NCBI RefSeq assembly: GCF_964213995.1
Contig: NC_135801.1
Location: forward strand, 27,466,001 to 27,530,000
Reading direction: 5' to 3'
DNA length: 64,000 bases
Source: Mustelus asterias
Lineage: Eukaryota
Every line of letters starts with the position of its first letter. Positions within the stretch are counted from its first letter, which is position 1. Below the pieces are notes generated by a model, which worked only from the letters and a program-made list of their open reading frames with translations, was not told where the DNA came from and searched no databases. Shown piece by piece: positions 10,076-58,499 of the stretch. Position numbers and translations under genes: made by a program.

Positions 10076-10436
10076 ATTGAACATTGACTTTTCACCTCTA
10101 TGAGCTACGTTTAAAATTGTAGATGAGCTGAAAAATACCTTGTTCACTGTCGGCACAACAGTATAACTTGCCATAATTCAAGATTTTGCAATCAATTTTC
10201 AGGCAGCTTAAAAGAGGGTGCAGGAATGGCTTGTTACTAGTGTATGCAGTTGACGTATTCCAATGTTCATAGCACGTTGGACATTAGGAACTGTTTCTTG
10301 TTCTGTAGATTTGAGCACATAATTTAGGCTGGCAGTTATATAGAATGATAGAATCCCTACATTGCAGAAGGAGGCCAATTCAGCCCATCGAGCCTGCACC
10401 CCCAACAACAATCCCACCCGGGCCCTATCCCCATTA

Positions 10437-12218
10437 CATAAGAACATAAGAAATAGGAGCAGGAGTAGGCCATCTGGCCCTTCGAGCCTGCCCCGCCATT
10501 CAACAAGATCATGGCTGATCTGAAGCGAATCAGTTCCACTTACCCGCCTGCTCCCCATATCCCCTAATTCCCTTATCGATCAGAAAACTATCTACCCGTG
10601 ATTTAAACATATTCAACGAGGAAGCCTCCACCACTTCAATGGGCAGAGAATTCCAGAGATTCACTACCCTCAGAGAAGAAGTTCCCCCTCAACTCTGTTC
10701 TGAACCGGCCCCCCCTTATTTTGAGGCTGTGCCCTCTAGTTCTGGTTTCCCTTCTAAGTGGAAAGAATCTCTCCACCTCTACCCTATCCAGCCCCTTCAT
10801 TATCTTATATGTCTCTTATATGTCTCTATAAGATCACCCCTCATCCTTCTAAACTCCAACGAGTACAGACCCAATCTGTTTAATCTCTCCTCATAAGCTA
10901 CACCCCTCATCTCCGGTATCAACCTGGTGAACCTTCTCTGCACTCCCTCCAAGGCCAATATATCCTTTCGCAAATAAGGGGACCAAAACTGCACACAGTA
11001 CTCCAGTTGCGGCCTCACCAGTGCCTTGTACAGTTGCAGCAAGACCTCCCTGCTTTTATATTCTATCCCCCTCGCGATAAAGGCCAACATTCCATTCGCC
11101 TTCTTGATCACCTGCTGCACCTGCAGACTGAGTTTTTGCAATTCGTGCACAAGGACCCCCAGGTCCCTCTGCACAGTCGCACGATGTAATTTTTCTCCAT
11201 TTAAATAATACTCCAATTTACTATTATTTCTTCCAAAGTGGATAACCTCACATTTGCTAACGTTATATTCCATCTGCCAGATCCTCGCCCACTCGCTCAC
11301 CCTATCCAAATCTCTCTGCAGACTTTCCGCGTCCTCCACGCAATTCGCTTTCCCACTCACCTTCGTGTCATCAGCAAACTTGAATACCCTAGATTCAGTC
11401 CCCTCCTCCAGATCATCTATGTAAATGGTAAACAATTGAGGCCCCAGCACCGATCCCTGCGGCACGCCACTGGTCACCAACTGCCAACCAGAAAAGCACC
11501 CATTTATCCCAACTCTCTGCTTCCTGTTAGATAGCCAATCCCCAATCCACGCCAACACCTTACCCCTAACTCCGTGTACCCCAATCTTCTGCAGCAACCT
11601 TTTGTGAGGCACCTTATCGAACGCCTTCTGGAAATCTAAAAACACCACATCCACCGGTTCCCCTCTGTCAACCGCACTAGTGACATCTTCATAAAAGTCC
11701 AGTAGATTCGTCAAACACGACTTTCCCTTCATGAATCCATGCTGCGTCTGCTTGATCGAACCATTCTTATTCAGGTGCTCTGTTATTTCCTCTTTAATAA
11801 TGGACTCTAGCATCTTCCCAACTACGGACGTTAAGCTAACCGGCCTGTAGTTACCCGCCTTTTGTCTACTTCCTTTTTTAAACAGCGGCGTAACAGTAGC
11901 TGTTTTCCAGTCAGCCGGCACTACCCCAGAGTCCAGCGAATTTTGATAAATTACTACTAACGCATCTGCTATTACCTCAGCCATTTCTTTCAGTACCCTG
12001 GGATGCATTCCATCCGGGCCCGGGGACTTGTCTACCTTCAGTCCTATTAGTCTACCAAGCACCACCTCCTTAGTAACAGTAATTGTATTAAGGACCTCCC
12101 CTCCCACCAACTCTCGATCTCTAATATTCGGCAAACTATTTGTGTCTTCCACCGTGAAGACCGACACAAAGAACTTATTTAAAGTCTCAGCCATTTCCTC
12201 GTTTTCCACTATTAAATC
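10437..12218 (-). mobile_element. Young 5'-truncated CR1 (HER1-like) LINE, ORF2 RT domain
   Basis: ORF 10800-12422 carries KSPGPDG, NYRPVSLTS, QHGF, DFQKAFD, GVPQGSVLGP and KFADD; (cttatgtt)n tail; an 11-bp tandem duplication at 10804-10825 shifts the frame. Confidence 0.95.
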
Positions 12219-15897: not shown

Positions 15898-17180
15898 CCA
15901 GTTTTGCTAGGGCCCCTCGATGCTACAAATGGTCAAATGCTGTCTTGATGTCAAGGACATCATCTCACCCCTGGAGTTCAGCTCTTTTGTTCATGTTTGA
16001 ACCAAAGCTGTAAGATCAGGAGCCGAGTGGCCCTGCGAGAACCCGAACAGTGAGCATGTTGTTGCTAAGTAAGTGCTGCTCGATAGCACTGATGACCCAT
16101 TTCATCACTTTACTGATGACTGAGAGTATTCTGATGGGGCAGTTATTGGCAAAGTTTCATTTTGTCCATTGTGTGTACAGGACATACCCGGGAAACTTTG
16201 CACATTGTAAATGTCATTGTTGTAGCTGTACAAATGCAGCTTGGTGAGGGACATGTGGAGCACAAGTCTTCAGTTCCGTTGCTTGCTTGTGGTGCTACCG
16301 AGCTACTCATGGTGATGGACATTGAAGACTCCACCCAGAGTAGACGCAACATTTCCACCCCCAGTGCTTCCTCCAAGTGGTGTTCAACATGGAGGAGCAC
16401 TAGTTCATCATGTGGGGGAAGGACACAGTACGTGGTAATCAGCAGGTAGTTTCCTTGCCAATGTTTGACCTGATGCCTTAAGCCTTCATGGGGTCCAGAT
16501 GTTGAGGACTCTCAGGGCAACTCCCTCCTAGGCCCATACATTTGCTGTACCCACTGCTTTCAGCCATTTCTTGACAAAGCATGGAGTGAATCGAATTGGC
16601 TGAAGACTGGCATCTGTAATGTTGGGGACTTTGAGAGGAGGCACCAATGGATCATCCATACAGCACTTCTAGCTGAAGATTGCGAATGTTTCTGCCTTCT
16701 CTTTTGCACTAATGTGCTGGGCTCTTCCATCGAGGATGGGAATATTTGTGGAGCCTCCTCCTCCAGTGAGTTGTGTGATTGTCTACCACCCTTCACCACT
16801 GGATGTGGCAAGACTGCAGAGCTTAGATCTGATCTGTTGGGTTGTGGAATTACTTAGCTCTGTCCATCACTGGCTTTATGTTGTAGCTTCACCAGATTGG
16901 CACTTTATCTTTAGGTATGCCCACCTGCATTCTTCATTGAACAAGGGTTGATCCTCTGGTTTGGTGGTAATGGTAGAGTGGGGGGATATGCTAAAGTTTG
17001 AGGTCAGAGATTGTGATGGAGTACAGTTCCGCTGTTGCTGATGGTCTATAGCACCTCATGGTTGCCCAGTCTGGTGTGCGAGATCTGTTTCGAAATCTAT
17101 CCTATTTAGCACGGTGGTAGTGCCACACAATACAATGGGACTTAATCTCCACAAGGACTGTACAGTGGTCACTCCTACCA

Positions 17181-17219
17181 AGCTTTGACAAAGGGTCATC
17201 TGGACTCGAAACGTCAGCT
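17181..17219 (+). ncRNA. Minimal hammerhead motif with U3:A8 core variant (Penelope-like family B)
   Basis: agcu-UUGACAA-a-GGGUC-aucug-GACUC-GAAA-cg-UC-agcu; GUC cleavage triplet, ACGU palindromic stem III. Confidence 0.6.
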
Positions 17220-17281
17220 CTTTTCTCTCCTTACAGATGCTGCCAGTCCTGCTGAGATTTTCCAACATTTTCTCTTTTGGT
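17181..17281 (+). mobile_element. Penelope-like family B fragment with about 16-bp target site duplication
   Basis: Flanked by TGGTCACTCCTACCAA (17166-17181 and 17278-17293); homologous to 46535-46643 on the opposite strand. Confidence 0.7.
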
Positions 17282-18729
17282 CACTCCTACCAATGCTGTC
17301 ATGGATGACGCACCTGCGGCAGGCAGGTTGGTGAAGATGAAATCAGGCATGTTTTTCCCACTTGTTGGTTCCCTCGCCACCTGCCGCAGGCCCAACCTAG
17401 CAGCTATGCCCTTTAGGACTCAGCCAGCTCGGTTTGTGGTGCTACTGAGCTACTCACGGTGATGGACATTGCAGACCCCCACCAGGAGTACATGCAACAT
17501 TGCCACCCTCAGTGCTTCCTCCAAGTGGTGTTCAACATGGAGCAGTATTGGTTCATCATGTGGGGGAAGGGAAGTACATGGTAATCAGCATGTTTGACCC
17601 GATGCCATGAGACTTCAAGGGGTCCAGATGTTGAGGATTCTCAGGGCAACTTCCTCCCGACTGTATACCATTATGCCACTATCTCTGCTGGGTCTGTCAT
17701 GCGGGTGGGACAGGACATACCTAGGAATGGTGACACTGGTATCTGGGACATCGTCACACTCACTGAATCATACCTTACAGACCATGTCAGGCTGTTGCCC
17801 GACTAGTCTGTGAGACGGCTCTCCCAGCGTTGGCACTGTCCCCAAGAACTTTGCAGGGTTGACAGGGCTGAGTTTGCCACTGCTGTTTCCGGTGCCTAGG
17901 TCAATGCAGGTGGTCTGCCTGGTTCTATTCATTTTAGACTTTTAACGGTAGCCTCCATGGGCACTGATAACTTTCTTGTAGCAAATGGTAGCAGGCTATT
18001 TGAAGATCAAGAGTGGACTTTGTAGATAGACCCACTCATGACCTTGCCTAACCTCCACAGTAGGAGATAAAGTACTGTAGCTGAGTTTCCTTTTCCTCCT
18101 CCTCAGGACAGGGATGTTAAAACTAATTGTGCCACTTCCATTTCTGCTATATCGGAGATCAACTAACTTGGCACAGAACAGAGATTGAACTCCTGGATCT
18201 TTGGCTTGTGTAGCTCAATATCACAGCCACGTGATTTATATATCCAGTAAATTAACAGCTGATAATCCACCCTTTGTAACTGAAAAAAAAAAGCAGATCA
18301 TAGGATCAAAGTTACAGGAAGTGGGAAAATAGTGAACAGTCCAGTCAGTTGTAAGCTTGGAGCATTTATTGCCATGGACAACCTACTGCTCTAATGTGAA
18401 TTAATTCAGCAATGCAGAACTTCTACACTAGGTTTTGATGTTCAATATGTTGACAAATCCACAAAGGCCATTAATAATGGATACAGTGCTACAATGCTGT
18501 AGAAAGATTGAAATGTACATTAACTCTGAAATACTGTAACCCTTTCTCATTTTGAATCAATAAAAAAAGACAGACTTAAAGCAGAAGGGTGACCAACACA
18601 AGATGAGGTTTAAAATGAACAGGTATTTCATGTTTGAAAACAAACCATGCACAGTCAGAATCATTGAAATATTGACACATATATTACAGTTTTAAAATCA
18701 ATTAGATCCATAATTTGTTCTTTCCACAT

Positions 18730-29559: not shown

Positions 29560-30833
29560 TGGATTTTTATGAAGATGTGACTAGTGCGGTTGATGGAAGG
29601 TGGATGTGGTGGATGCAGGTGGATGCGGTGTTTTTGGATTTCCAAAAGGCGTTTGATAAGGTGCCTCACAAAAGGTTGCTGAAGAAGATTGGGTCACACT
29701 GAGTTGGGGGTAGGGTGTTAGCGTGGATTGGGGATTGGTTATCCGACAGGAAGCAGAGAGTCGGAATAAATGGGTGCTTTTCTGGTTGGCAGATGGTAAC
29801 TAGTGGCGTGCCGCAGGGATCGGTACTGGGGCCTCAACTATTTACCATTTATATAGACGATTTGGAGGAGGGGACTGAGTGTAGGGTAACAAAGTTTGCA
29901 GACGACACAAAGATAAGTGGAAAAGTGAATCGTGTGGCGGGCGTAGAAGGTCTGCAGAGAGATTTGGACAAGCTGAGTGAATGGGCGAGGATCTGGCAGA
30001 TGGAGTATAACGTTGACAAATGCGAGGTTATTCACTTTGGAGGAAATAATAGCAAATTGGATTATTATCTAAATGGAAAAAAATTACAACATGCTACTGT
30101 GCAAAGGGACCTGGGGTTCCTTGTGCATGAGACGCAAAAACCCAGTCTGCAGGTGCAACAGGTGATCAAGAAGGCAAAAGGGATGTTGGCCTATATCGCA
30201 AGGGGGATAGAATATAAAAGCAGAGACGTCTTGCTGCATCTGTACAGGGCATTGGTGAGGCCGCAGCTGGAATACTGTGTGCAGTATTGGTCCCCTTATT
30301 TGTGGAAGGATATATTGGCCTTGGAGGGAGTGCAGAGAAGGTGCACCAGGTTGATACCAGAGATGAGGGGTGTTGATTATGAGGAGAGACTGAGCAGATT
30401 GGGTTTGTACTCGTTGGAATTTAGAAGGCTGAGGGGGGATCTTATAGAGACCTATAAGATAATGAAGGGGCTGGATAGGGTAGAAGTGGAGAGATTCTTT
30501 CCACTTAGAAAGGAAGCTAGAATTAGAGGGCACAGCCTCAAAATAAAGGGGGGTCAGTTTAGGACAGAGTTGAGGAGGAACTTCTTCTCTCAGAGGGTGG
30601 TGAATCTCTGGAATTCTCTGCCCACTGAAGTGGTGGAGGCTACCTCGTTGAATACGTTTAAATCACGGATAGATGGATTCCTGATCGGTAAGGGAATTAG
30701 GGGTTATAGGGATCAGACGGGTAAGTGGAACTGATCCACTTCAGATCAGCCATGATCTTATTGAACGGCGGGGCAGACTCGAGGGGCTGGATGGCCTACT
30801 CCTGCTCCTATTTCTTATGTTCTTATGTTCTTA
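29560..30833 (+). mobile_element. Young 5'-truncated CR1 LINE
   Basis: 339-aa ORF 29715-30734 with GVPQGSVLGP and KFADDTK and a complete ORF2 C-terminus; (cttatgtt)n tail. Confidence 0.95.
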
Positions 30834-32839: not shown

Positions 32840-34900
32840 TACTACACATTTGTAGCACAGAAACAGCTTAATAGTTCCTTGCACATGTCTATGCTTCACA
32901 TGAGCTCCCTCTCACCTCTCTTCATCTAACTCCATCAACATATGAAATCTATTTCTTTCTTCCTCCCTCATATGCATATCTAGTTTTCCCTTGATAATAT
33001 CCATGCTATTCACCTCATCGGCTCCATATTCTAACCACCGTGGGTAAATAGGTTTCTTCTCAATTTCCTTTTGGATTTATTAATGACTATCGCATCTTCT
33101 CTACATCTACCCGATCAAATCCTTCCTTAACCTTGAAGAGCTCTATCTGGCCTTTCCTCAATCTTCTCTTTTCTACAGAAAAGAGCTCCGGTTCAACCTT
33201 GCTGATGGGTGTAACTTTTAAATCCGGCATCATTCTCGTAAATCTTTCTTGAACTTGCTCTACCATCTCTATATCCTTTTTGGGGTATATCAGTTGTTCA
33301 CAGTACTCCCAAGTGTGGTCTAACCAAGATTCTAGATATACTTAACTGGTCCGCTTTTCAGTTCTATTAATCTATAAAGTAACCCCAGTGCTTTCTTTGT
33401 TTTAAATTGCCTTATTAATCTGCCTCATTAGTTTTAGATTTCTCACTTTGATCCTGTCCAATGATAATGTGGTCTCTTTATTCTTCATAACAAAATGTAC
33501 CCCATCACATTTATCTATATTGAAGTTAATTTGCCAATTAAATGGCCATTTTTCATGTTTATTAATATCTTCCAGTATTTTGTCGCAGTTCTCTTCTGTA
33601 TCAACTGTACCCACTAATTTGATATCAGCAGCTCATTTTGAAACTTTACTTCCGATCCCAAACCTCTAATTGTTTACGTGAGTGATGAACAGCAGTGGTC
33701 CCAGCATCAATCCCTGTGGAACGTACACCGTGTCAATTTTTACTAAGTCTCTTATCCTCTACTATTGGTTTTCTGTTTAACATACAGCCTGCTATCCATT
33801 CTGCTACTTCTCCCCTGACTCGACATGCTCTGACTTTCATCAGGGTTTACTGTGCAATATGTTTTCAAAGACCGTTCCAAGATCCAAATACATTACGTCA
33901 CAGAATGGTTACGGCACAGAAGGGGGACATTTAGCCCACAATGTCTGTACTGGCTCTCCAAATGAGCATTATGACTTTGTGCCATTCCCCTGCCTGCAAT
34001 GCCCTCTCGAATGCTTTGATTGAACTACCTTCATCTACCCTGTTATTTCAATATTTTTCAAATAATTTAGAAGCAGGATAGGTCAAGCATGACCTTCCCC
34101 TTTTGGAATCTGTACTGACTATTCTTATATTTTCAGTTTCTAGATGTTCCTCTATCACATATTTCATGAGATTCCATTATCTTTCTTAGACAGCTAATGT
34201 GTCTATATTTCTCTGGACTTACTGTATTGCCCAGGACTGACGTATACAGGAATCACTTTAGCTGTCCACCGGTCCTCTGACACTGTTCCCTTTCCTCATG
34301 AATTTTCTATCGGTTGTAATAGTGCCTCTGGTATCTCTTTTCTAAATACGCGCAGATACAATCCATTCGACCCAGAGGTTTAATCAGTTCATCAATTATT
34401 CCTCCCCCCCCTTTTCTATCTTAAATGTCTTTACATCCTTTTCTATCTTCTAATGTCATGTCCAGTGTTAGTTTCCCTGGTAAATACAGAGATAAAATAA
34501 CTATCTTATTATTTCTGCAATAAAAGCAAAATACTGCAGATGCTGAAAAATCTGAACTAAAAACAGAAAATGCTGGATGAAGTCAGAAGATCTGGTTGCA
34601 TCTGTGGAGAGAGTACAAGAGTTAATGTTCTGGATCTTAATGACCCTTCTGCAGAACCATTGTAGCATCTGTAGATGGATCTAAATGATCTGTCTACAGA
34701 TTCTACGAAATGTTAACTCTTTCTCGCCACAGACGCTGCCAGACCTGCTGAGTTAATATTTCTGGCATTTCAGTGTTATTACCGGTTGAATTTATCACAA
34801 GTATTTTAGTGGGCCTATCACTATTCTCACCTTTCCTTTGATGTTTAAGTATGTGTAGAATATTTTACTAGTTATTTTTATTGTTCCTCCTTACCGTCCT
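32840..34900 (-). mobile_element. Old degenerate CR1 LINE
   Basis: NWQINFNIDKCDGVHF in ORF 33402-33614 plus other decayed RT motifs. Confidence 0.65.
34519..34775. mobile_element. Older palindromic family-B-related Penelope-like remnant
   Basis: aataaaagcaaaatactgcagatgctg...gcatctgtggagag...gagttaatgtt, then the inverted atgttaactctttctcgccacagacgctgccagacctgctgag. Similar degenerate fold-backs at about 35680-35857, 45330-45450 and 23970-24110. Confidence 0.55.
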
Positions 34901-34978: not shown

Positions 34979-35015
34979 CACTAGCTTTCGGAGTCTCAGG
35001 CTCCTTCATCAGGTG
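34979..35015 (-). ncRNA. Minimal type I hammerhead ribozyme motif (Penelope-like family A), sense to SETD7 intron 4
   Basis: cac-CUGAUGA-a-GGAG-ccugaga-CUCC-GAAA-gc-UA-gug: canonical core, 4-bp stem II, palindromic AGCU stem III, 3-bp stem I. Confidence 0.7.
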
Positions 35016-35301
35016 AGTGAGGACTTGTGTTCTCAAACAGATCATATACAGACACAAAATCAATTTACAAGATAATGGTTGGAATGCGAGTCTTTACAGG
35101 TAATCAAGTCTTAAAGGTACAATGTGAGTGGAGAGAGGGCCAAGCACAGGTTAAAGAGATGTGTATCGTCTCCAGCCAGGACAGTTAGTGAGATTTTGCA
35201 AGCCCAGGCAAGTCGTGGGGGTTACAGATAGCGTGGCTCCAAGTGGAGAGGATCTCCAAGAAGATCACACATATTGACACACACTATCTGTAACCCTCAC
35301 T

Positions 35302-35338
35302 CACCTGATGAAGGAGCCTGAGACTCTGAAAGCTAGTG
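35302..35338 (+). ncRNA. Minimal type I hammerhead ribozyme motif (family A, inverted copy)
   Basis: cac-CUGAUGA-a-GGAG-ccugaga-CUCU-GAAA-gc-UA-gug; G.U closes stem II. Confidence 0.62.
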
Positions 35339-36369
35339 CTGCCAAATAAACCTGTTGGACTTTAACCTGGTGTTGTGAGACTTCTTACTGTGCTTACCCC
35401 ATTCCAACGCCAGCACTTCCACATCATGGCTTAATTGACAAGGTCAGAACATCATAGATCATTATCTTTGACAATGAAGGACAAGTCATCCGCCATTCCC
35501 CGCACCTCCAGCATGCCACACACAACTCCATCCTTCCCCCCGCCACTCCCCACTTGGCTACCAACACAGGGGACCCAGAATTAACCCATTTCCCCCCCTC
35601 TTCTGTGATTTTACACCATCCAACCTTAAAATGCTTATAATCGATGATGTATGATGTAGGGAGAGAGTAAGGGAATTTTAAAGAGCAAAGTATCCGAGAT
35701 GCTGGAATTCTGAAATGCTGGAACTACTCACCAGGCCTGGCAGCATCTGAGAGTTCGAAGCAAGATTTAATGCTTCAGGATGATCTTTTATCAGAACCCA
35801 CATGAAAGGTCATTAATCTGATACATTTACTTTGTTTCTCTCCACAGATGCTGCCAAAGGAATAAAACATTATCTAGCCTATCCTATTGGCCCATAACTT
35901 TCTCAGACTGGCATCAGCAGTGGATTGACTTACCTGCGCTTAAATTGTAAAGTGCCTTTCTCACCCAACCTTCCTGACTTAGGCCAGTTGATTCTGAAAA
36001 AGCGAAGCATGTCCATGGCTCCAGGGGCGAAGTGCAAAAGGAGCAGAGTGAAGGGGGCACCCCCCACTTTTTACAACACTATCTGCCATAGAGCAGGTGA
36101 GTTTCAAGGTCCCATTGAATGGGAGAAGACAAGTTCCTAAGGTAACTGAATGGGATGTTGGGCTGGAGATTTAGACGTTTAGAGTCAGATACTGGGACAG
36201 CTCCAATGGCAGGGCTCTGTCTGGGTCTTTAAAGTAGTGAAGTTAGAAGTGATTTTTTTCCCCCTTTCAGAGTAACTATGAGAGTGTAAAACTGGCAGAA
36301 ACATTCAGCATTAGCGATTTAAATCACTTTGTCAGATGGTTCTCAGAGCAACCCAATTGTCCAGGGGAT

Positions 36370-43545: not shown

Positions 43546-45861
43546 TACAATAATTCATTAATAATTAGAATCCTAATTAAGCAGTTGTTTCACTCTAAGT
43601 TGCACACTGGATTAGATTTGCTGAATACAGGAATGATTGGGGCAATTAATTTGATTTTGAGATAAAGAATGCTTTATCTGACCTCCAACCCTCCCTTGCC
43701 ACTTTCAATTTTCTTAATTTGGCCTATTTATTTTCAGGTAAGTTAGAACAGCAGAGGCAGGACTCTTCAACGTTATGGTTCATAATATACAGCAAATCTG
43801 CAAAACCAGGAGAGATGCAATTTTTTCCCCCCACCCGAGAACTAGATGTGGGTATTTTACCAGCAAATAAATATTGCGCACATCCATTACATTCATTCAG
43901 TTTTGCTCTGTGTCAGTCTTACGGATGACAAAGATCATATCCAAAATGGGGCGACTTATTCCTCCAAGCAGCTGACGTAACATGTTGCAACAAAATGCTA
44001 CTCATCACACAAGAAGATACTGCTCTTGACTGGGCCTCAACAGGGAAAGGAGAGGGAGGTGCTTTCCAATGGGATGAAAAGAGTCATTTGTAAGTATTTC
44101 TAGACCTCTGACCTATTGCAATGGCTGGGTAACGTTCGTGAGGTTAAACAAATGAGACACATCACTGGCCTGTAGAAGTGTGCTGTCTGACTGCCATCAG
44201 TATTATAAAATCTCTTCATCCAGTGACAGTTCTTATATTTGGTGCCACGGGCAAAATAAAACCCTCAAGATGGACCTTTGCACTTCATTTGTGTTAAAAG
44301 AGTGCAGCAAAGTTACTGCAAAACAAGGTGGAAATTAGAGGGGTTGAAGTTACTAGCTTTTCCCCATCACCCCAGGAACATTTTTTGACTCCAGACCATG
44401 GTCACACTAACAGTCTAGATCCAGTTTGACAATATGCAGGAAATTTGTTTGCAATTGCCAGGTCGCAGAACGTGCTGCGCCTTTGAAAAAGAGGGATATG
44501 TATTCTGTTTTCTAGAAAGCGTAGATTCCAAGGATAATTTTATGTGCCATAACGCATGGTACTACAGCTGGTTAGAAACAAGACAAACACTTGAAGTAGC
44601 TATTCCACATTTTCACACATCCTTTGCCCTCCCCTCCTAAAAGAACAATTTCACAAGTGATACGTGAGTACCTTGCCAAAGTGCCTCATGTTTGAGCTTA
44701 GAATATCAGGTTATTCCAGCAAAGAGACTGTCATGGTGTATCCTCTTATCTGATACACTTATTAATTGACCCCCTGATGGAAAGCATAAGCAACTCAGAT
44801 TTTCCCCTCCTAACCCAATGTAAAAGTTACTCAATTTTTACAGTAGAGAAACAGACCATTCAAATAGATCTTTGCTTATGAAGGGTTATGGGGAGAAAGC
44901 AGGAAAATGGAGATGAGGATTATATCAGCCATGATTGAATGACGGAGCGGACTCAGTTGGCCGAATGGCCTAATTCTGCTCCTATATCATATGAACTTGC
45001 TGATTCGCAAATGATTTGGAGAACCCACGCGTTGCACATTTTAATATATTCAAAGAATGCCCTGTTTTAAACTATGTGGAGGTAAACTGGCTGAGGCCCT
45101 TTCTCCTGTCCAGTGACCCCTGTTGGAAATGCACATGGGAATATTGGGCATAGACAGGATGGGATTAAACTGTGACAACTTACACAGTTAAATAGCAGAA
45201 TACTGATGACATAATGTCCCACATAGAAAGGACCGGAGGATCACTGGCTTCTGTGGTACTATACCCGACTTCTAGTCAAACTTACTCACGAGATAAGAGA
45301 AGGAATAAAGAGTCAGGAAATGTCTGCAACAGTGAAAACAGAAACTGCTGCAAGCACTCAGCAAACTACACAGCAACTGTGGAAAGAGAAACTGCTCCGC
45401 TCTCCACAGACACTGTCAGACTTGCTCAGTATTTCCAGCATTTGCTGTTTTTAAATTTTAGACAAATAATATGCTCTGCCAAAGCACCAGGATCCCAAAT
45501 GGTGTAGATCTTCACCCCATAAGGTGGCACTGGAGAGCAAAGAACTCAGATGGGCAGAATGTTTTAAATTAAGTCACCCAGGAAGTTTTCAGCCAGGATA
45601 TGAGTATAGGGAAAGAGTACCAACAATGATGGTCACATTTTCTTTGCTAAAACTTGTATAACATGAACTAAAAAAACCACCTGCTTGGTACCAACCTCTT
45701 CAACATCAGGATGGCACGCAATGTGACAAGCTGCCCTCAAACTCTGCCACCTACTTGTAGCAATCAACACTTACAGGTTCAATAGAGCTTGCGGCTTCCC
45801 ATACGAGAGTAAAACATAACAAATGGGTTGTAAGAATATAGGGGTAGGGGAAGCTCAACTA

Positions 45862-46506: not shown

Positions 46507-46795
46507 AATAAAAGCAAATTACTGCAGATGCTGGAATCTGAAACCAAAAGAGAAAATGCTGGAAAATCTCAGCAGGTCTGGCAGCATCTGTAAAGAGAGA
46601 AAAGAGCTGACGTTTCGAGTCCAGATGGCCCTTTGTCAAAGCTAAAAGGGATGGAAAATGGGAGATATTTATACTGCAGGGTGAGGGAATGAAAGATGAG
46701 TCATAGCCACAGAAACCAGGGTAAAGGGCTGTTAGTGTCAGTCCCTAGAGAGAATAAAGGGTGTGAATGGCCAAACGCCAGAGAAGCTAAAATTA
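46507..46795 (-). mobile_element. Penelope-like family B fragment
   Basis: aataaaagcaaattactgcagatgctggaatctgaaacc...ctttgtcaaagct, reverse-complement homologue of 17181-17281; short CCTCCT direct repeat at the flanks. Confidence 0.65.
46605..46643 (-). ncRNA. Minimal hammerhead motif with U3:A8 core variant (family B), sense to SETD7 intron 2
   Basis: agcu-UUGACAA-a-GGGCC-aucug-GACUC-GAAA-cg-UC-agcu; one stem II mismatch relative to the 17181 copy. Confidence 0.55.
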
Positions 46796-54779: not shown

Positions 54780-55180
54780 TTTAGGGAAAGTAAAATCGCG
54801 CTGGTTATGGGTCGTTGCGAATGGTTTTCTCTCGCCAGCGCACGTTTGCGATGCTTTGTTCGATTACCATAAAATAAAAGAGTCGCTTTTAAAAGGCGTG
54901 ATTTGGGGGGCCGGGTATCTCTTGCACCGCACTGTCCCTCCCTCCTGCTCGGCTTCTTTCAGGGGGGAGGTTAGGGGGCTGTGTGGGACAAACCCGCACA
55001 CATTCCCACTACTCACCTTCCACTGTCTCCTCCACATTATCATCGTCACTGTCCATCATGCTGCCTCTTCTCGGTGCCCCGGAGACGAGAGCTGCTCTCA
55101 GGCCGGGGGACTGCCTCTAAACTCTGCCTCCCCACACTGCCTGCTGCCTGAACCGGAATCAGCGTTCAGACGCTGACATC
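54780..55180 (-). promoter_or_regulatory. SETD7: CpG-enriched promoter/5' UTR region of SETD7
   Basis: CpG-rich sequence around exon 1. ETS-like ACCGGAA at 55152, a 7-bp inverted repeat TCAGCGT-tcag-ACGCTGA (55159-55176), and CRE-like TGACATCA just upstream. Confidence 0.6.
55017..55059 (-). CDS. SETD7: SETD7 coding exon 1, (M)MDSDDDNVEETVE-G
   Basis: Minus strand reads agcATG ATG GAC AGT GAC GAT GAT AAT GTG GAG GAG ACA GTG GAA G|GTGAGT. This matches the SETD7 N-terminus (human MDSDDEMVEEAVEG). Tandem ATGs at 55059 and 55056; 40 nt from the second. Confidence 0.93.
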
Positions 55181-55184
55181 ATCC

Positions 55185-56220
55185 CCAGCTGCTGCTGTGA
55201 CTGACAGCTTCAGTCCATTCCCCCCCCCCCCACCTCCCCTTGGCACCCATATCCAAATGTTCCCTGGACGGACAGCTGCACTCCCTTTTTATCCACCCCC
55301 TCTCCCCCTGACACCCATATCCAACCTCCACACCCACATCCACCCCACCCCCACACATCCATATGCTGCTGTAACTGACAGCTTCAACCACTTCCCCCTC
55401 TACCCAACACCCATATCCAACTGTTCCCTTGACTGGCAGCTGCTCTCCCTTTTTTATCCACCTTTTTATCTCCCCTAACATCCATATCCAATCCCCCACC
55501 ACACACCCCCATATCCAGCTGCTGCTGTAACTGACAGCTTCAGCCACTTCCCTCTTCCCCTGACACCCATATCCAACTGTTCCCTTGACTGGCAGCTGCA
55601 CTCCCTTTTTATCCACCCCCTCTCTCCTGATACCCATATCCCATATCCAAGCCCCGGCCACACACACCCATATCCAACTGCTGCTGTCACTGACAGCTTC
55701 AGCCACTTTTTTTGATTGGATTTATTATTGTCACATGTATTAGTATTCAAAGAAAAGTATTGTTTCTTGCACACTGTACATGCAAAGCATACCGTTCATA
55801 GAGAAGGAAAGGAGAGTGCAGAATGTAGTGTTACAGTCATAGCTAGGGTGCAGAGAAAGATGTGAGGTAGGCCCATTCAAAAGTCTGATGGCAGCAGGGA
55901 AGAAGCTGTTCTTAAGTCGGTTGGTACATGTACTCAGAAGGAGAAAGACTTCCCCTTTCCCCTAACACCTATATCCAAACCCCCTTCACACACTGCAATT
56001 GCTGCTGTAACTGGCAGCTTCAGCCACTTCCCCTTCCCCATATCCAGCGTTCCCTTGACTAACAGCTCTCCCTTTTTATTTCCCTGTTCCCCGACACCTA
56101 TATCCAACCCCCCTCCACACACACCTATATCCAAATGTTCCTTTGACTGACAACTGCTCTCTCTTTTTATTCCCCCTCCCTTGACATGCATATCTAACTG
56201 CTCCTTTGATTGGCAGCTGG
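55185..56220. repeat. Complex C-rich tandem repeat (about 155-175 bp units) immediately upstream of SETD7
   Basis: Recurring unit CTGCTGTRACTGACAGCTTCAGCCACTTCCC...CCCATATCCAA. TGACAG cores at 55202, 55376, 55532 and 55691, with a variant at 56012. Interrupted by a LINE tail at 55707-55936. Confidence 0.85.
55707..55936 (-). mobile_element. Rex1/Babar-like LINE 3' end inserted into the SETD7 upstream tandem array
   Basis: Reverse-complement homologue of 14431-14645; interrupts the array at cagccac|ttccc. Confidence 0.65.
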
Positions 56221-57899
56221 CAACCTCTCTCCTCCCTCAGATATCATCACACTCTGTAATGAAACAAAGAACAGTCATTAACCCCACCCCAAAATCCCCC
56301 ACTTGGTGTAGTCAGAATGAGGGTCACTTGCACCCACAAGCCTAAATGCCCCAACCCCACCCGCTATCCCATTCATTCCTGATGCTCCCAATGTACATTG
56401 TATTCCCCTTTGCTGTGTTTTAGTATTGCCCCTGTCCACTCCACTCCCAACTTTGCCAACAGCCCTTCTGTAATTCAGAGAAAATCAACAGAATTGTGGC
56501 CCCACGGTATCCAGCTACCAGCAGCTTTGAATTGGCACCCAGCCCCACACACATTCCATCAAGAGCCCTGGCTCATTCTTTTATTTTTGCCCTTCGCCAG
56601 CTAAAGGACGCTGGGTTCAGTGGTTGTGTCTCCAATGCAGGTCCAGCTAAGATCAGTTAATTCAGCACACACCAGGAATTGCTGGGCAGAAGCCAAGCCT
56701 GGTCTCTTTGTCTCAGTTATTCATCGGCCATTTCAGCTACTGAACCACCATTGGATTCCTTCCAGGAAGTTTTTGATAGGGGTAATTTTCCAACTTCACG
56801 CTCTTGGGCAGGGATGAAGACTCCATAATTAAAGATTCAGGGACACTACAAATGATTTTCACCAAACAGGAATACGGAATATTATTCAAATAATAAAAAA
56901 TGTAAATGGATGAGCCAGGATCTAGTTTCAGTATTTTTCATGGCAAAATCCCTCTATCCCTTTAACTCTCTTGTTTCTTCCAGCCCCTTCCCCCAACACC
57001 CTCTCTTTTTGCACCACCTTCTCACACCCTGCATCATTATAAACTCTTACATGTTTTGTCACCTAATATTACATTCTGTCACTTATCTTGCATCACCTAC
57101 CACCCCACTATCTATTCCCTCTTACTCAACCCCATTCTCTGCACTCCTCCTTCCTCTCCATACCCTGTGCTCACGGTTTTCTTCTCACCTCCCACCAACT
57201 TTATCCGCCAATCTTTATTCCTTTCTTGTCATCATCTCCCCATTAGCAAGGTTCCATTCTTATGGCACCACCCCACCCAAGTCTTTATTCTTTTAACTGA
57301 TCAGTTCCTACATATATCCCAGCAAACCCTTCAGTCTACAACACCCCCAAACTGTCCCTCACCATCAGCCCCCTATTCCTTTATAACCCATCCCAATCGC
57401 GCTCAACAGTGCATTTTAGAAAGTCCTATCCTCCATCTCATTATAAGCTTTGCTGGTTTCCCAGAAGTGAAAATTCAGCAATTTGTCTTTTTAAAATTCA
57501 AAAAGCATTCTAGAAAGAACACCATGCTACGTTCCTTTCATAATGATATAAACACTAAAAATTGTTTCCCAGAGCCAGGAAATTGTCAACGGAGCAGTTA
57601 GAATGGAGATATGGACCTGGAGAACGGACAAGGAGGTTAGGTAGATTACAAACCAGGAAGGAATGGCATGAGTCATGAGTCCATTGATCGATATACCTGG
57701 GCTGTTAGGAACAGGATAGGGGGATTGGCTGTGCTAAAATGCCCCTTTAGTGTCCTAAGATGTCTAGGTTAGATGGATGTGTAGGTTAGGGGGATTAGCA
57801 GGGTAAATACATGGGGTTATGGGTACAGGGGGGAAAAGAGGGCCTGGGTAAGTTACTCTGTCAGAGAACCAGTACATCACCAGTACACCAGTACAGTGC

Positions 57900-58499
57900 T
57901 GCATCTGTAGAGGGCATTGGTGAGGCCGCAGCTGGAATACTGTGTGCAGTATTGGTCCCCTTATTTGCGGAAGGATATATTGGCCTTGGAGGGAGTGCAG
58001 AGAAGGTTCACCAGGTTGATACCAGAGATGAGGGGGTATTGATTATGAGGAGAGACTGAGCAGATTGGGTTTGTACTCGTTGGAATTTAGAAGGCTGAGG
58101 GGGGATCTTATAGAGACCTATAAGATAATGAAGGGGCTGGATAGGGTAGAGGTGGAGAGATTCTTTCCACTTAGAAAGGAAGCTAGAACTAGAGGGCACA
58201 GCCTCAAAATAAAGGGGGGTCAGTTTAGGACAGAGTTGAGGAGGAACTTCTTCTCTCAGAGGGTGGTGAATCTCTGGAATTCTCTGCCCACTGAAGTGGT
58301 GGAGGCTACCTCGTTGAATATGTTTAAATCACGGATAGATGGATTCCTGATCGGTAAGGGAACTAGGGGTTACAGGGATCAGGCGGGTAAGTGGAACTGA
58401 TCCACTTCAGATCAGCCATGATATTATTGAATGGCGGGGCAGGCTCGAGGGGCTAGATGGCCTACTCCTGCTCCTATTGTTTATGTTCTTATGTTCTTA
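57900..58499 (+). mobile_element. CR1 3' fragment, near-identical to 30235-30833, nested in a V-SINE tail
   Basis: GLYSLEFRRLRGDLIETYKIMKGLDRVEVERFFPLRKEA...; host SINE halves at about 57720-57872 and 58500-58550. Confidence 0.92.

Follow-up and report, generated by a model that had tools for sequence, protein, structure and literature searches.

Hammerhead ribozymes that carry a U3-A8 pair in place of C3-G8 are already published, including in a Penelope element, and have been known since 2011 and 2014. More specifically, natural hammerheads showing this covariation in several examples were reported to be active in vitro (Perreault et al. 2011, PMC3088659), and U3-A8 occurs in the minimal hammerhead of the Cercyon element of Schistosoma mansoni, with ~1300 matches (Cervera and De la Pena 2014, PMC4209133); minimal hammerheads are described there as having low activity in vitro. 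For the green anole Poseidon element PAc, the tail of Penelope-like elements (PLEs) was traced to two internal RT start sites, and the hammerhead was found to be protein-assisted and dispensable for insertion in vitro (Frangieh et al. 2024, PMC11167929). As to promoters, a TATA box is noted in a rotifer pseudo-LTR (pLTR) (PMC3846280), and the D. virilis promoter is TATA-less (PMC2377424). The role of the hammerhead in Penelope elements is called unclear by the papers cited here. A retrozyme preprint of 2026 includes one chondrichthyan, and the word "covariation" does not occur in its main text; the available text of PMC6155905 holds nothing on U3-A8, and the terms "shark", "Callorhinchus" and "Leucoraja" are absent from the searched supplement of PMC4209133. 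Our literature search, run on a collection with few subscription papers, returned no paper on shark Penelope hammerheads, of which an example may sit in supplements, and none that ties the TATA start of a PLE to inserts ending at one fixed position.

The window analysed here, a 64,000-nt stretch of the genome of Mustelus asterias, contains two U3-A8 hammerhead motifs, one on each strand (Table 1). The plus-strand motif reads AGCT-TTGACAA-A-GGGTC/ATCTG/GACTC-GAAA-CG-TC-AGCT, and the minus-strand motif (46643 to 46605) is the same save for one U>C at 46628, by which a pair of stem II is lost; identity between the copies is 96% across 100 nt. The preliminary description had reported one motif in two insertions: both are indeed present, but the substitution in the minus-strand copy had gone unmentioned. 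The structural features of a type I hammerhead that we examined are found (stems I and II, an extra base after A9, G10.1-C11.1, and a palindromic, loopless helix III), and both window copies have the core N3-U-G-A-N-N8-A plus GAAA with a Watson-Crick 3-8 pair. The assignment to the minimal type I hammerheads that Penelope-like elements carry, with U3 and A8 changed together in both copies, is borne out by the core, the stems, helix III and the location in the pLTR. An Rfam scan gave 30 matches at E<=10, none of them to a hammerhead model, and a PDB sequence search gave 0 matches. The window copies are likely to be short, inert insertions of a Penelope-like end module.

Table 1. Positions of the two U3-A8 hammerhead copies, their parts and their surroundings in the window
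Feature	Position	Strand	Remarks
Minimal type I hammerhead motif, U3-A8 core	17181..17219	+	Anatomy as described in PMC4209133
Parts of the 17181 motif: core and stem II			U3 17185; A8 17190; extra A 17192; stem II 17193-17207; GAAA 17208-17211
Parts of the 17181 motif: helix III and stem I			Palindromic loopless ACGU 17211-17214; stem I 17181-17184/17216-17219
Predicted cut of the 17181 motif	3' of C17 = 17215		
Short insert, Penelope-like pLTR module on its own	17181..17281	+	From the family 5' hotspot (-4) to the shorter 3' end (~+96, no tail)
Left copy of the 16-bp target duplication	17166..17181	+	Last base common to the insert
Right copy of the 16-bp target duplication	17278..17293	+	First 4 bases fit the element end too
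Host: decayed repeat	16944..17590	-	Intact copies read ...DASVHDSIGRSDH...; insert lies within the GRSDH codons
Second U3-A8 hammerhead motif	46605..46643	-	One stem II mismatch at 46628
TATAAA box, predicted pLTR promoter	46668..46673	-	First base exactly 30 nt 5' of the first base of stem I
Other copy of the element end, longer and 5'-truncated	46508..46795	-	With 30-40 nt tail, ending ~+131

The closest described counterpart is the Cercyon minimal hammerhead (PMC4209133), with which our motif shares the type I architecture, the lack of a loop III, palindromic positions 15.2-16.2, the extra base between 9 and 10.1, the G10.1-C11.1 pair, a 4-bp stem I, the U3-A8 core, and an occurrence mostly as single dispersed copies. 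It differs from Cercyon in having a stem II of 5 bp, in its cartilaginous-fish host, and in the existence of a C3-G8 sister subfamily of similar size that permits direct comparison. The U3-A8 hammerheads of PMC3088659, in the available text of that paper, are not presented as a Penelope pLTR motif, unlike the motif described here. Because the same U-A swap has already been published, our finding is in this respect an ordinary one, and it adds a shark example to a known variant.

The exact 30-nt U3-A8 pattern has 2908 matches in the genome and its reversed control has 0, so the motif is not a chance occurrence. These make up 2908 of the 3166 matches in the exact frame. Position 3 is not U in 195 exact-frame matches, and a hand count among the first 100 of these listed gave 50 C3-A8, 14 C3-G8, 15 A3-A8, 16 G3-A8 and 5 other states; a further 63 have U3 with a base other than A at position 8 (G in 38). 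Two samples were chosen independently of the core state. Thirty loci were picked by endonuclease DNA alone, and the motif was present in 24, with U3 in 24/24 and A8 in 23/24, the sole exception being the query locus. The other sample was anchored downstream and comprised 94 copies from the first 90 listed of 8647 matches; among the matches listed, 50 copies were collinear across the motif, with U3 in 49/50 and A8 in 47/50. Mixed core states in the 40 loci that we read were point changes, junction artefacts or members of the sister subfamily. U3-A8 is the consensus of the subfamily, not decay. A consensus and a tabulation of core states had been set beforehand as the check on the preliminary description, with a CUGACGA consensus and many unpaired copies as one outcome that would speak against it; since U3-A8 is the consensus and CUGACGA is not, that outcome was not observed.

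The sister subfamily is similar in size to the U3-A8 subfamily (10978 matches) and retains C3-G8; it is set apart by its own loop II, by a GUU triplet and by a G-U pair within stem I. Thirty sister copies were fetched and 19 were collinear, with C3 in 15/19 and positions 7-8 reading CG in 7, TG in 4 and CA in 4. Likewise, a second sample obtained with a narrower pattern (52 matches) had C3 in 48/52, with CG in 16, TG in 19 and CA in 13. The C3-A8 copies of the sister subfamily look like CpG decay. With CA and TG counts near-equal, as CpG decay gives, a C3-A8 intermediate source lineage is not indicated.

The remaining hammerhead families among the fetched loci carry C3-G8, and the direction of change, from C3-G8 to U3-A8, was assumed from these families and from the canonical consensus. 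On this assumption, a single source lineage would have passed from a C3-G8 ancestor to U3-A8, perhaps by CpG decay at C7-G8 together with a compensating C3>U. The covariation is real between the subfamilies, but it goes back to one founder event that thousands of copies have since inherited, so the number of copies does not count as independent support for selection. Among the matches listed, the catalytic G12 is changed in 9/50 copies, as freely as other CpG sites, so genomic copies are decaying neutrally, without selection. Of the proposal that a family-level covariation is kept under selection rather than being decay, the family-level part thus stands as a subfamily consensus, but the selection part draws no independent support from copy number. 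Selection on the 3-8 pair in the source lineage is nevertheless plausible. The paired U3-A8 and C3-G8 sister subfamilies form a natural test of what the 3-8 pair is kept for.

The motif follows a Penelope-like RT-endonuclease ORF of Neptune type, ~370-420 nt 3' of its GIY-YIG end, and at the endonuclease-picked loci 22 of the 24 motifs are 367-418 or ~620-720 nt downstream. Longer copies contain RT and a CX4CxxC linker, with CNRRRCNTC in the copies L102 and L070. The RT piece matches 230 proteins at E<=1e-20, many with RVT_1 and PF26215 and some with GIY-YIG, and its closest named relatives, at 60-72% identity, come from rays and sharks. The Pfam matches to GIY-YIG have E values of 0.0012-0.01, below the curated cut-off, and Pfam on the degenerate ORF pieces gave no RT domain, with 1/5 proteins matched; every ORF copy read is broken by stops or frameshifts. 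One near full-length copy of ~3.4 kb, L242, carries the module at both ends and is arranged in the order module, ORF start, RT, linker, GIY-YIG, TATA box and U3-A8 motif. Linkage to a GIY-YIG/RT ORF, which the preliminary description had named as a check, is thus established by the motif at the endonuclease-picked loci and by this copy.

The features of EN+ Penelope-like elements that we found comprise a single ORF with a PLE-type RT plus GIY-YIG at its C-terminus, a pLTR, partial tandems, inverted 5' copies and a 30-40-bp tail. They agree with what is described for Neptune and Nematis EN+ elements, namely RT, a CX2-5CxxC linker and GIY-YIG at the C-terminus, along with partial tandems, inverted 5' copies, an optional 30-40-bp tail and a TATA-like box in the pLTR (10.1101/2021.04.23.441226; PMC3846280). 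The label Neptune is a putative one, resting on the CX2-5CxxC linker motif, which is common to Nematis. As in PAc, the hammerhead is near the ORF start, and the two internal RT start sites and the uncleaved template RNA of PAc probably have counterparts here; unlike PAc, which is C3-G8 and has its ATG inside the ribozyme, the element described here has its likely ATG ~215 nt downstream of U3 (PMC11167929).

Between the module and the ORF start of L242 there are pyrimidine-tract-AG sites that resemble splice acceptors, located before the hammerhead, at ~+51, ~+103 and ~+136, and immediately ahead of the likely ATG. Two of four contig sets, from different organisms, one possibly the source species, contain pieces that end at 46641-46643 and 46508-46510, which may be taken as a weak hint that the element family is shared between species.

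The ends of the copies fall into a restricted set of positions. Among the matches listed of the anchor-picked sample, 3' ends form two groups, +86..+111 (50/94) and +124..+133 (44/94), a pattern that fits the tail and both RT start sites reported in PMC11167929. On the 5' side, 54/94 of these listed copies end within -9..+2 of U3, 27 of them at -4, and a single copy (1/94) ends at the predicted cut, +31. The C3-G8 sister subfamily has the same 5' start. The TATA box is at exactly -30 in 20/23 matches in U3-A8 copies and in 2/2 sister copies with a diverged spacer, and another hammerhead family has TATA-like boxes 31-35 nt 5' of its motif. Thirty copies continue into the ORF: 10 start at -4..+6, 8 further upstream and 10 further downstream, and the remaining 2 (+29 and +33) are L242, at its element start, and L248, long ORF-bearing copies beginning beside the predicted cut but too scarce to amount to a footprint. 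A second, downstream module is present in 11 of the 30, and in 10/11 it begins at -4/-3, joined to scattered ORF positions; one extra G is seen at the joint in 3/10 of these compound inserts. When 5' joints were scored for a cap-derived G, the first 100 matches listed of 598 gave 41 G, 47 T and 12 C.

The 10 compound inserts (L252, L253, L256, L261-L264, L267, L268 and L271) consist of a module, 400-1400 nt of the ORF 5' region, and a second module at -4/-3; they resemble short two-hammerhead "retrozyme-like" units, but their breakpoints are scattered. Three copies with different flanks (L015, L016 and L183) have an identical 18-nt spacer between an inverted arm and the hammerhead at their 5' joints, pointing to a hairpin derivative mobilized in one piece.

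The 5' hotspot lies 30 nt 3' of the TATA box and is joined to scattered ORF sites in the 10 compound inserts, and it is for these reasons likely to be the 5' end of an uncleaved template RNA. Neither feature, a fixed 5' end 30 nt after TATA or scattered ORF joints to it, was found for Neptune or Nematis elements in the available text of their descriptions (10.1101/2021.04.23.441226; PMC3846280). Transcription would start at stem I, ~30 nt 3' of the TATA box; the RT of the element would prime within the RNA at ~+96 or ~+131 and would run off the 5' end of uncleaved RNA, giving 100-135-bp solo inserts such as 17181-17281. Such inserts could thereby represent a strong-stop step of Penelope replication, in which a TATA start at the first base of the hammerhead, internal priming and run-off at a capped, uncleaved 5' end are followed by integration, fold-back or a jump to a different RNA position that builds the pseudo-LTR, a reading that we put forward tentatively, as possible rather than probable. 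If it is true, the hammerhead is a conserved 5'-terminal switch and not the maker of the template end. Alternatively, the hotspot might not be an RNA start at all, with RT stalling or switching template at stem I or at an AG|CT splice-acceptor-like site, and with the palindromic AGCT driving fold-back joints. Such a mechanism would explain the inverted arm upstream in 38/54 hotspot copies among the matches listed, often centred on AGCT, and it is in keeping with the pyrimidine tract ending in AG that precedes the motif, with a D. virilis intron that ends at helix I (PMC4209133), and with the self-priming invoked for such palindromes (PMC3846280). However, 16/54 hotspot copies among the matches listed have no inverted arm, this one position is linked in the compound inserts with numerous unrelated ORF sites, in most cases lacking AGCT homology, a shared upstream exon was not seen, and the TATA spacing stays at 30 nt despite the diverged spacer; we regard this explanation as rather unlikely. 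As we read them, the copy ends point to a template RNA that carries an intact ribozyme at its start and for the most part is copied without being cut, and this bears on what hammerheads do in Penelope elements.

Whether the ribozyme cuts is addressed by its predicted folding and by breakpoints near the cut site. In ViennaRNA, which leaves out tertiary and protein effects, an inactive monomer fold (-9.8 kcal/mol) is favored over the hammerhead (-8.3 kcal/mol) by 1.5 kcal/mol, and a double hammerhead is possible for the dimer at -14.9 kcal/mol, against -23.2 kcal/mol for the best dimer. Among U3-A8 copies broken near the cut site (first 100 matches listed of 342), 15 start at +31; by hand count, 12 of these are mirror-arm joints over an AGCT microhomology, versus 6 and 6 at two neighboring microhomologies, and the remaining 3 resemble internal deletions. 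There is accordingly no clean excess of starts at +31 in the U3-A8 subfamily, either in the 94-copy sample or among those 100 matches, and the sister subfamily has 1 such start among the first 100 matches listed. As breakpoints, the +31 starts would neither show nor exclude rare cleavage.

We consider it probable that the inserts are short, likely inert stubs of an abundant Neptune-type Penelope pseudo-LTR, and that U3-A8 is one inherited change that likely keeps the 3-8 pair and hence a weak self-cleaving fold, probably assisted by protein or dimerization. The opposite case, that the U3-A8 ribozyme is catalytically dead or dispensable, its pair having survived by the luck of one successful source element and transposition needing only uncleaved RNA, draws on the rarity of starts at the cut site in the 94 copies among the matches listed, on the microhomology and deletion-like character of the +31 starts among the 100 matches listed, and on the anole element, in which insertion in vitro was unaffected by ribozyme mutants and RNA-seq reads with an end at the cut site were absent (PMC11167929). 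We think it unlikely, though with a real chance of being right, in that a Watson-Crick 3-8 pair, the pairing of stem II and stem I itself are preserved in both of the large subfamilies although loop II, position 17 and stem I position 1.1 have changed, no abundant mismatched source lineage was seen, and U3-A8 ribozymes are reported to be active in vitro (PMC3088659). An independent, non-autonomous retrozyme or SINE, excised by the ribozyme and replicating as a unit of its own, might be suspected from the 100-135-bp copies that lack an ORF, number in the thousands and have target duplications of their own, but the insert ends do not match the cut site, on either side the short-insert sequence runs collinearly with that of the ORF-bearing element, and tandem arrays of the short unit are absent from the loci read; this origin, already disfavored, is very improbable. 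A non-LTR retrozyme, defined by tandem ORF-less units with cleavage-set ends, was rejected, as the copies are solo or fold-back and their ends lie off the cut site.

The insertion at 17181 is ~100 nt long and sits in a decayed repeat that is presumably an AP-endonuclease-like LINE segment. Its 16-bp target duplication, as claimed in the preliminary description, is exact (17166-17181 = 17278-17293), and 5/5 other copies of the host repeat that we examined have an insert-free single site. Of the duplicated bases, up to 5 agree with the termini of the element as well (one at the 5' joint and four at the 3' joint), which leaves 11-16 bp that derive from the host. The copy shows 2 differences from the family majority in 99 nt and, outside the anchor, 0/63 differences, versus a mean of 4.3 in 81 copies among the matches listed, which would fit a copy on the young side; 99 nt dates poorly. 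The start at stem I had also been taken as a sign of recent mobility. By divergence the copy is fairly young, but its stem I start is a family-wide hotspot, found in the C3-G8 sister too, and because more than half of the 94 copies among the matches listed begin there, it is no sign of youth.

Several other repeats are present in the window. At 34990-35360, a fold-back pair of another Penelope-like family carries two C3-G8 hammerheads (CUGAUGA...GAAA-GCUA) at 35012(-) and 35305(+); the minus-strand motif at 35012 has a TATA-like box 32 nt to its 5' side. Older, decayed relatives of the U3-A8 end module, some in inverted pairs and with eroded cores, occur at 34519-34752, 35680-35856 and 45335-45451. 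A near-identical (99%) pair of 300-nt repeats lies at 30367-30666 and 58033-58332, longer inverted copies (88-91%) of another young repeat lie at 10436-11655 and 29618-30828, and an irregular tandem array of C-rich units of ~50-100 nt spans 55180-56240.
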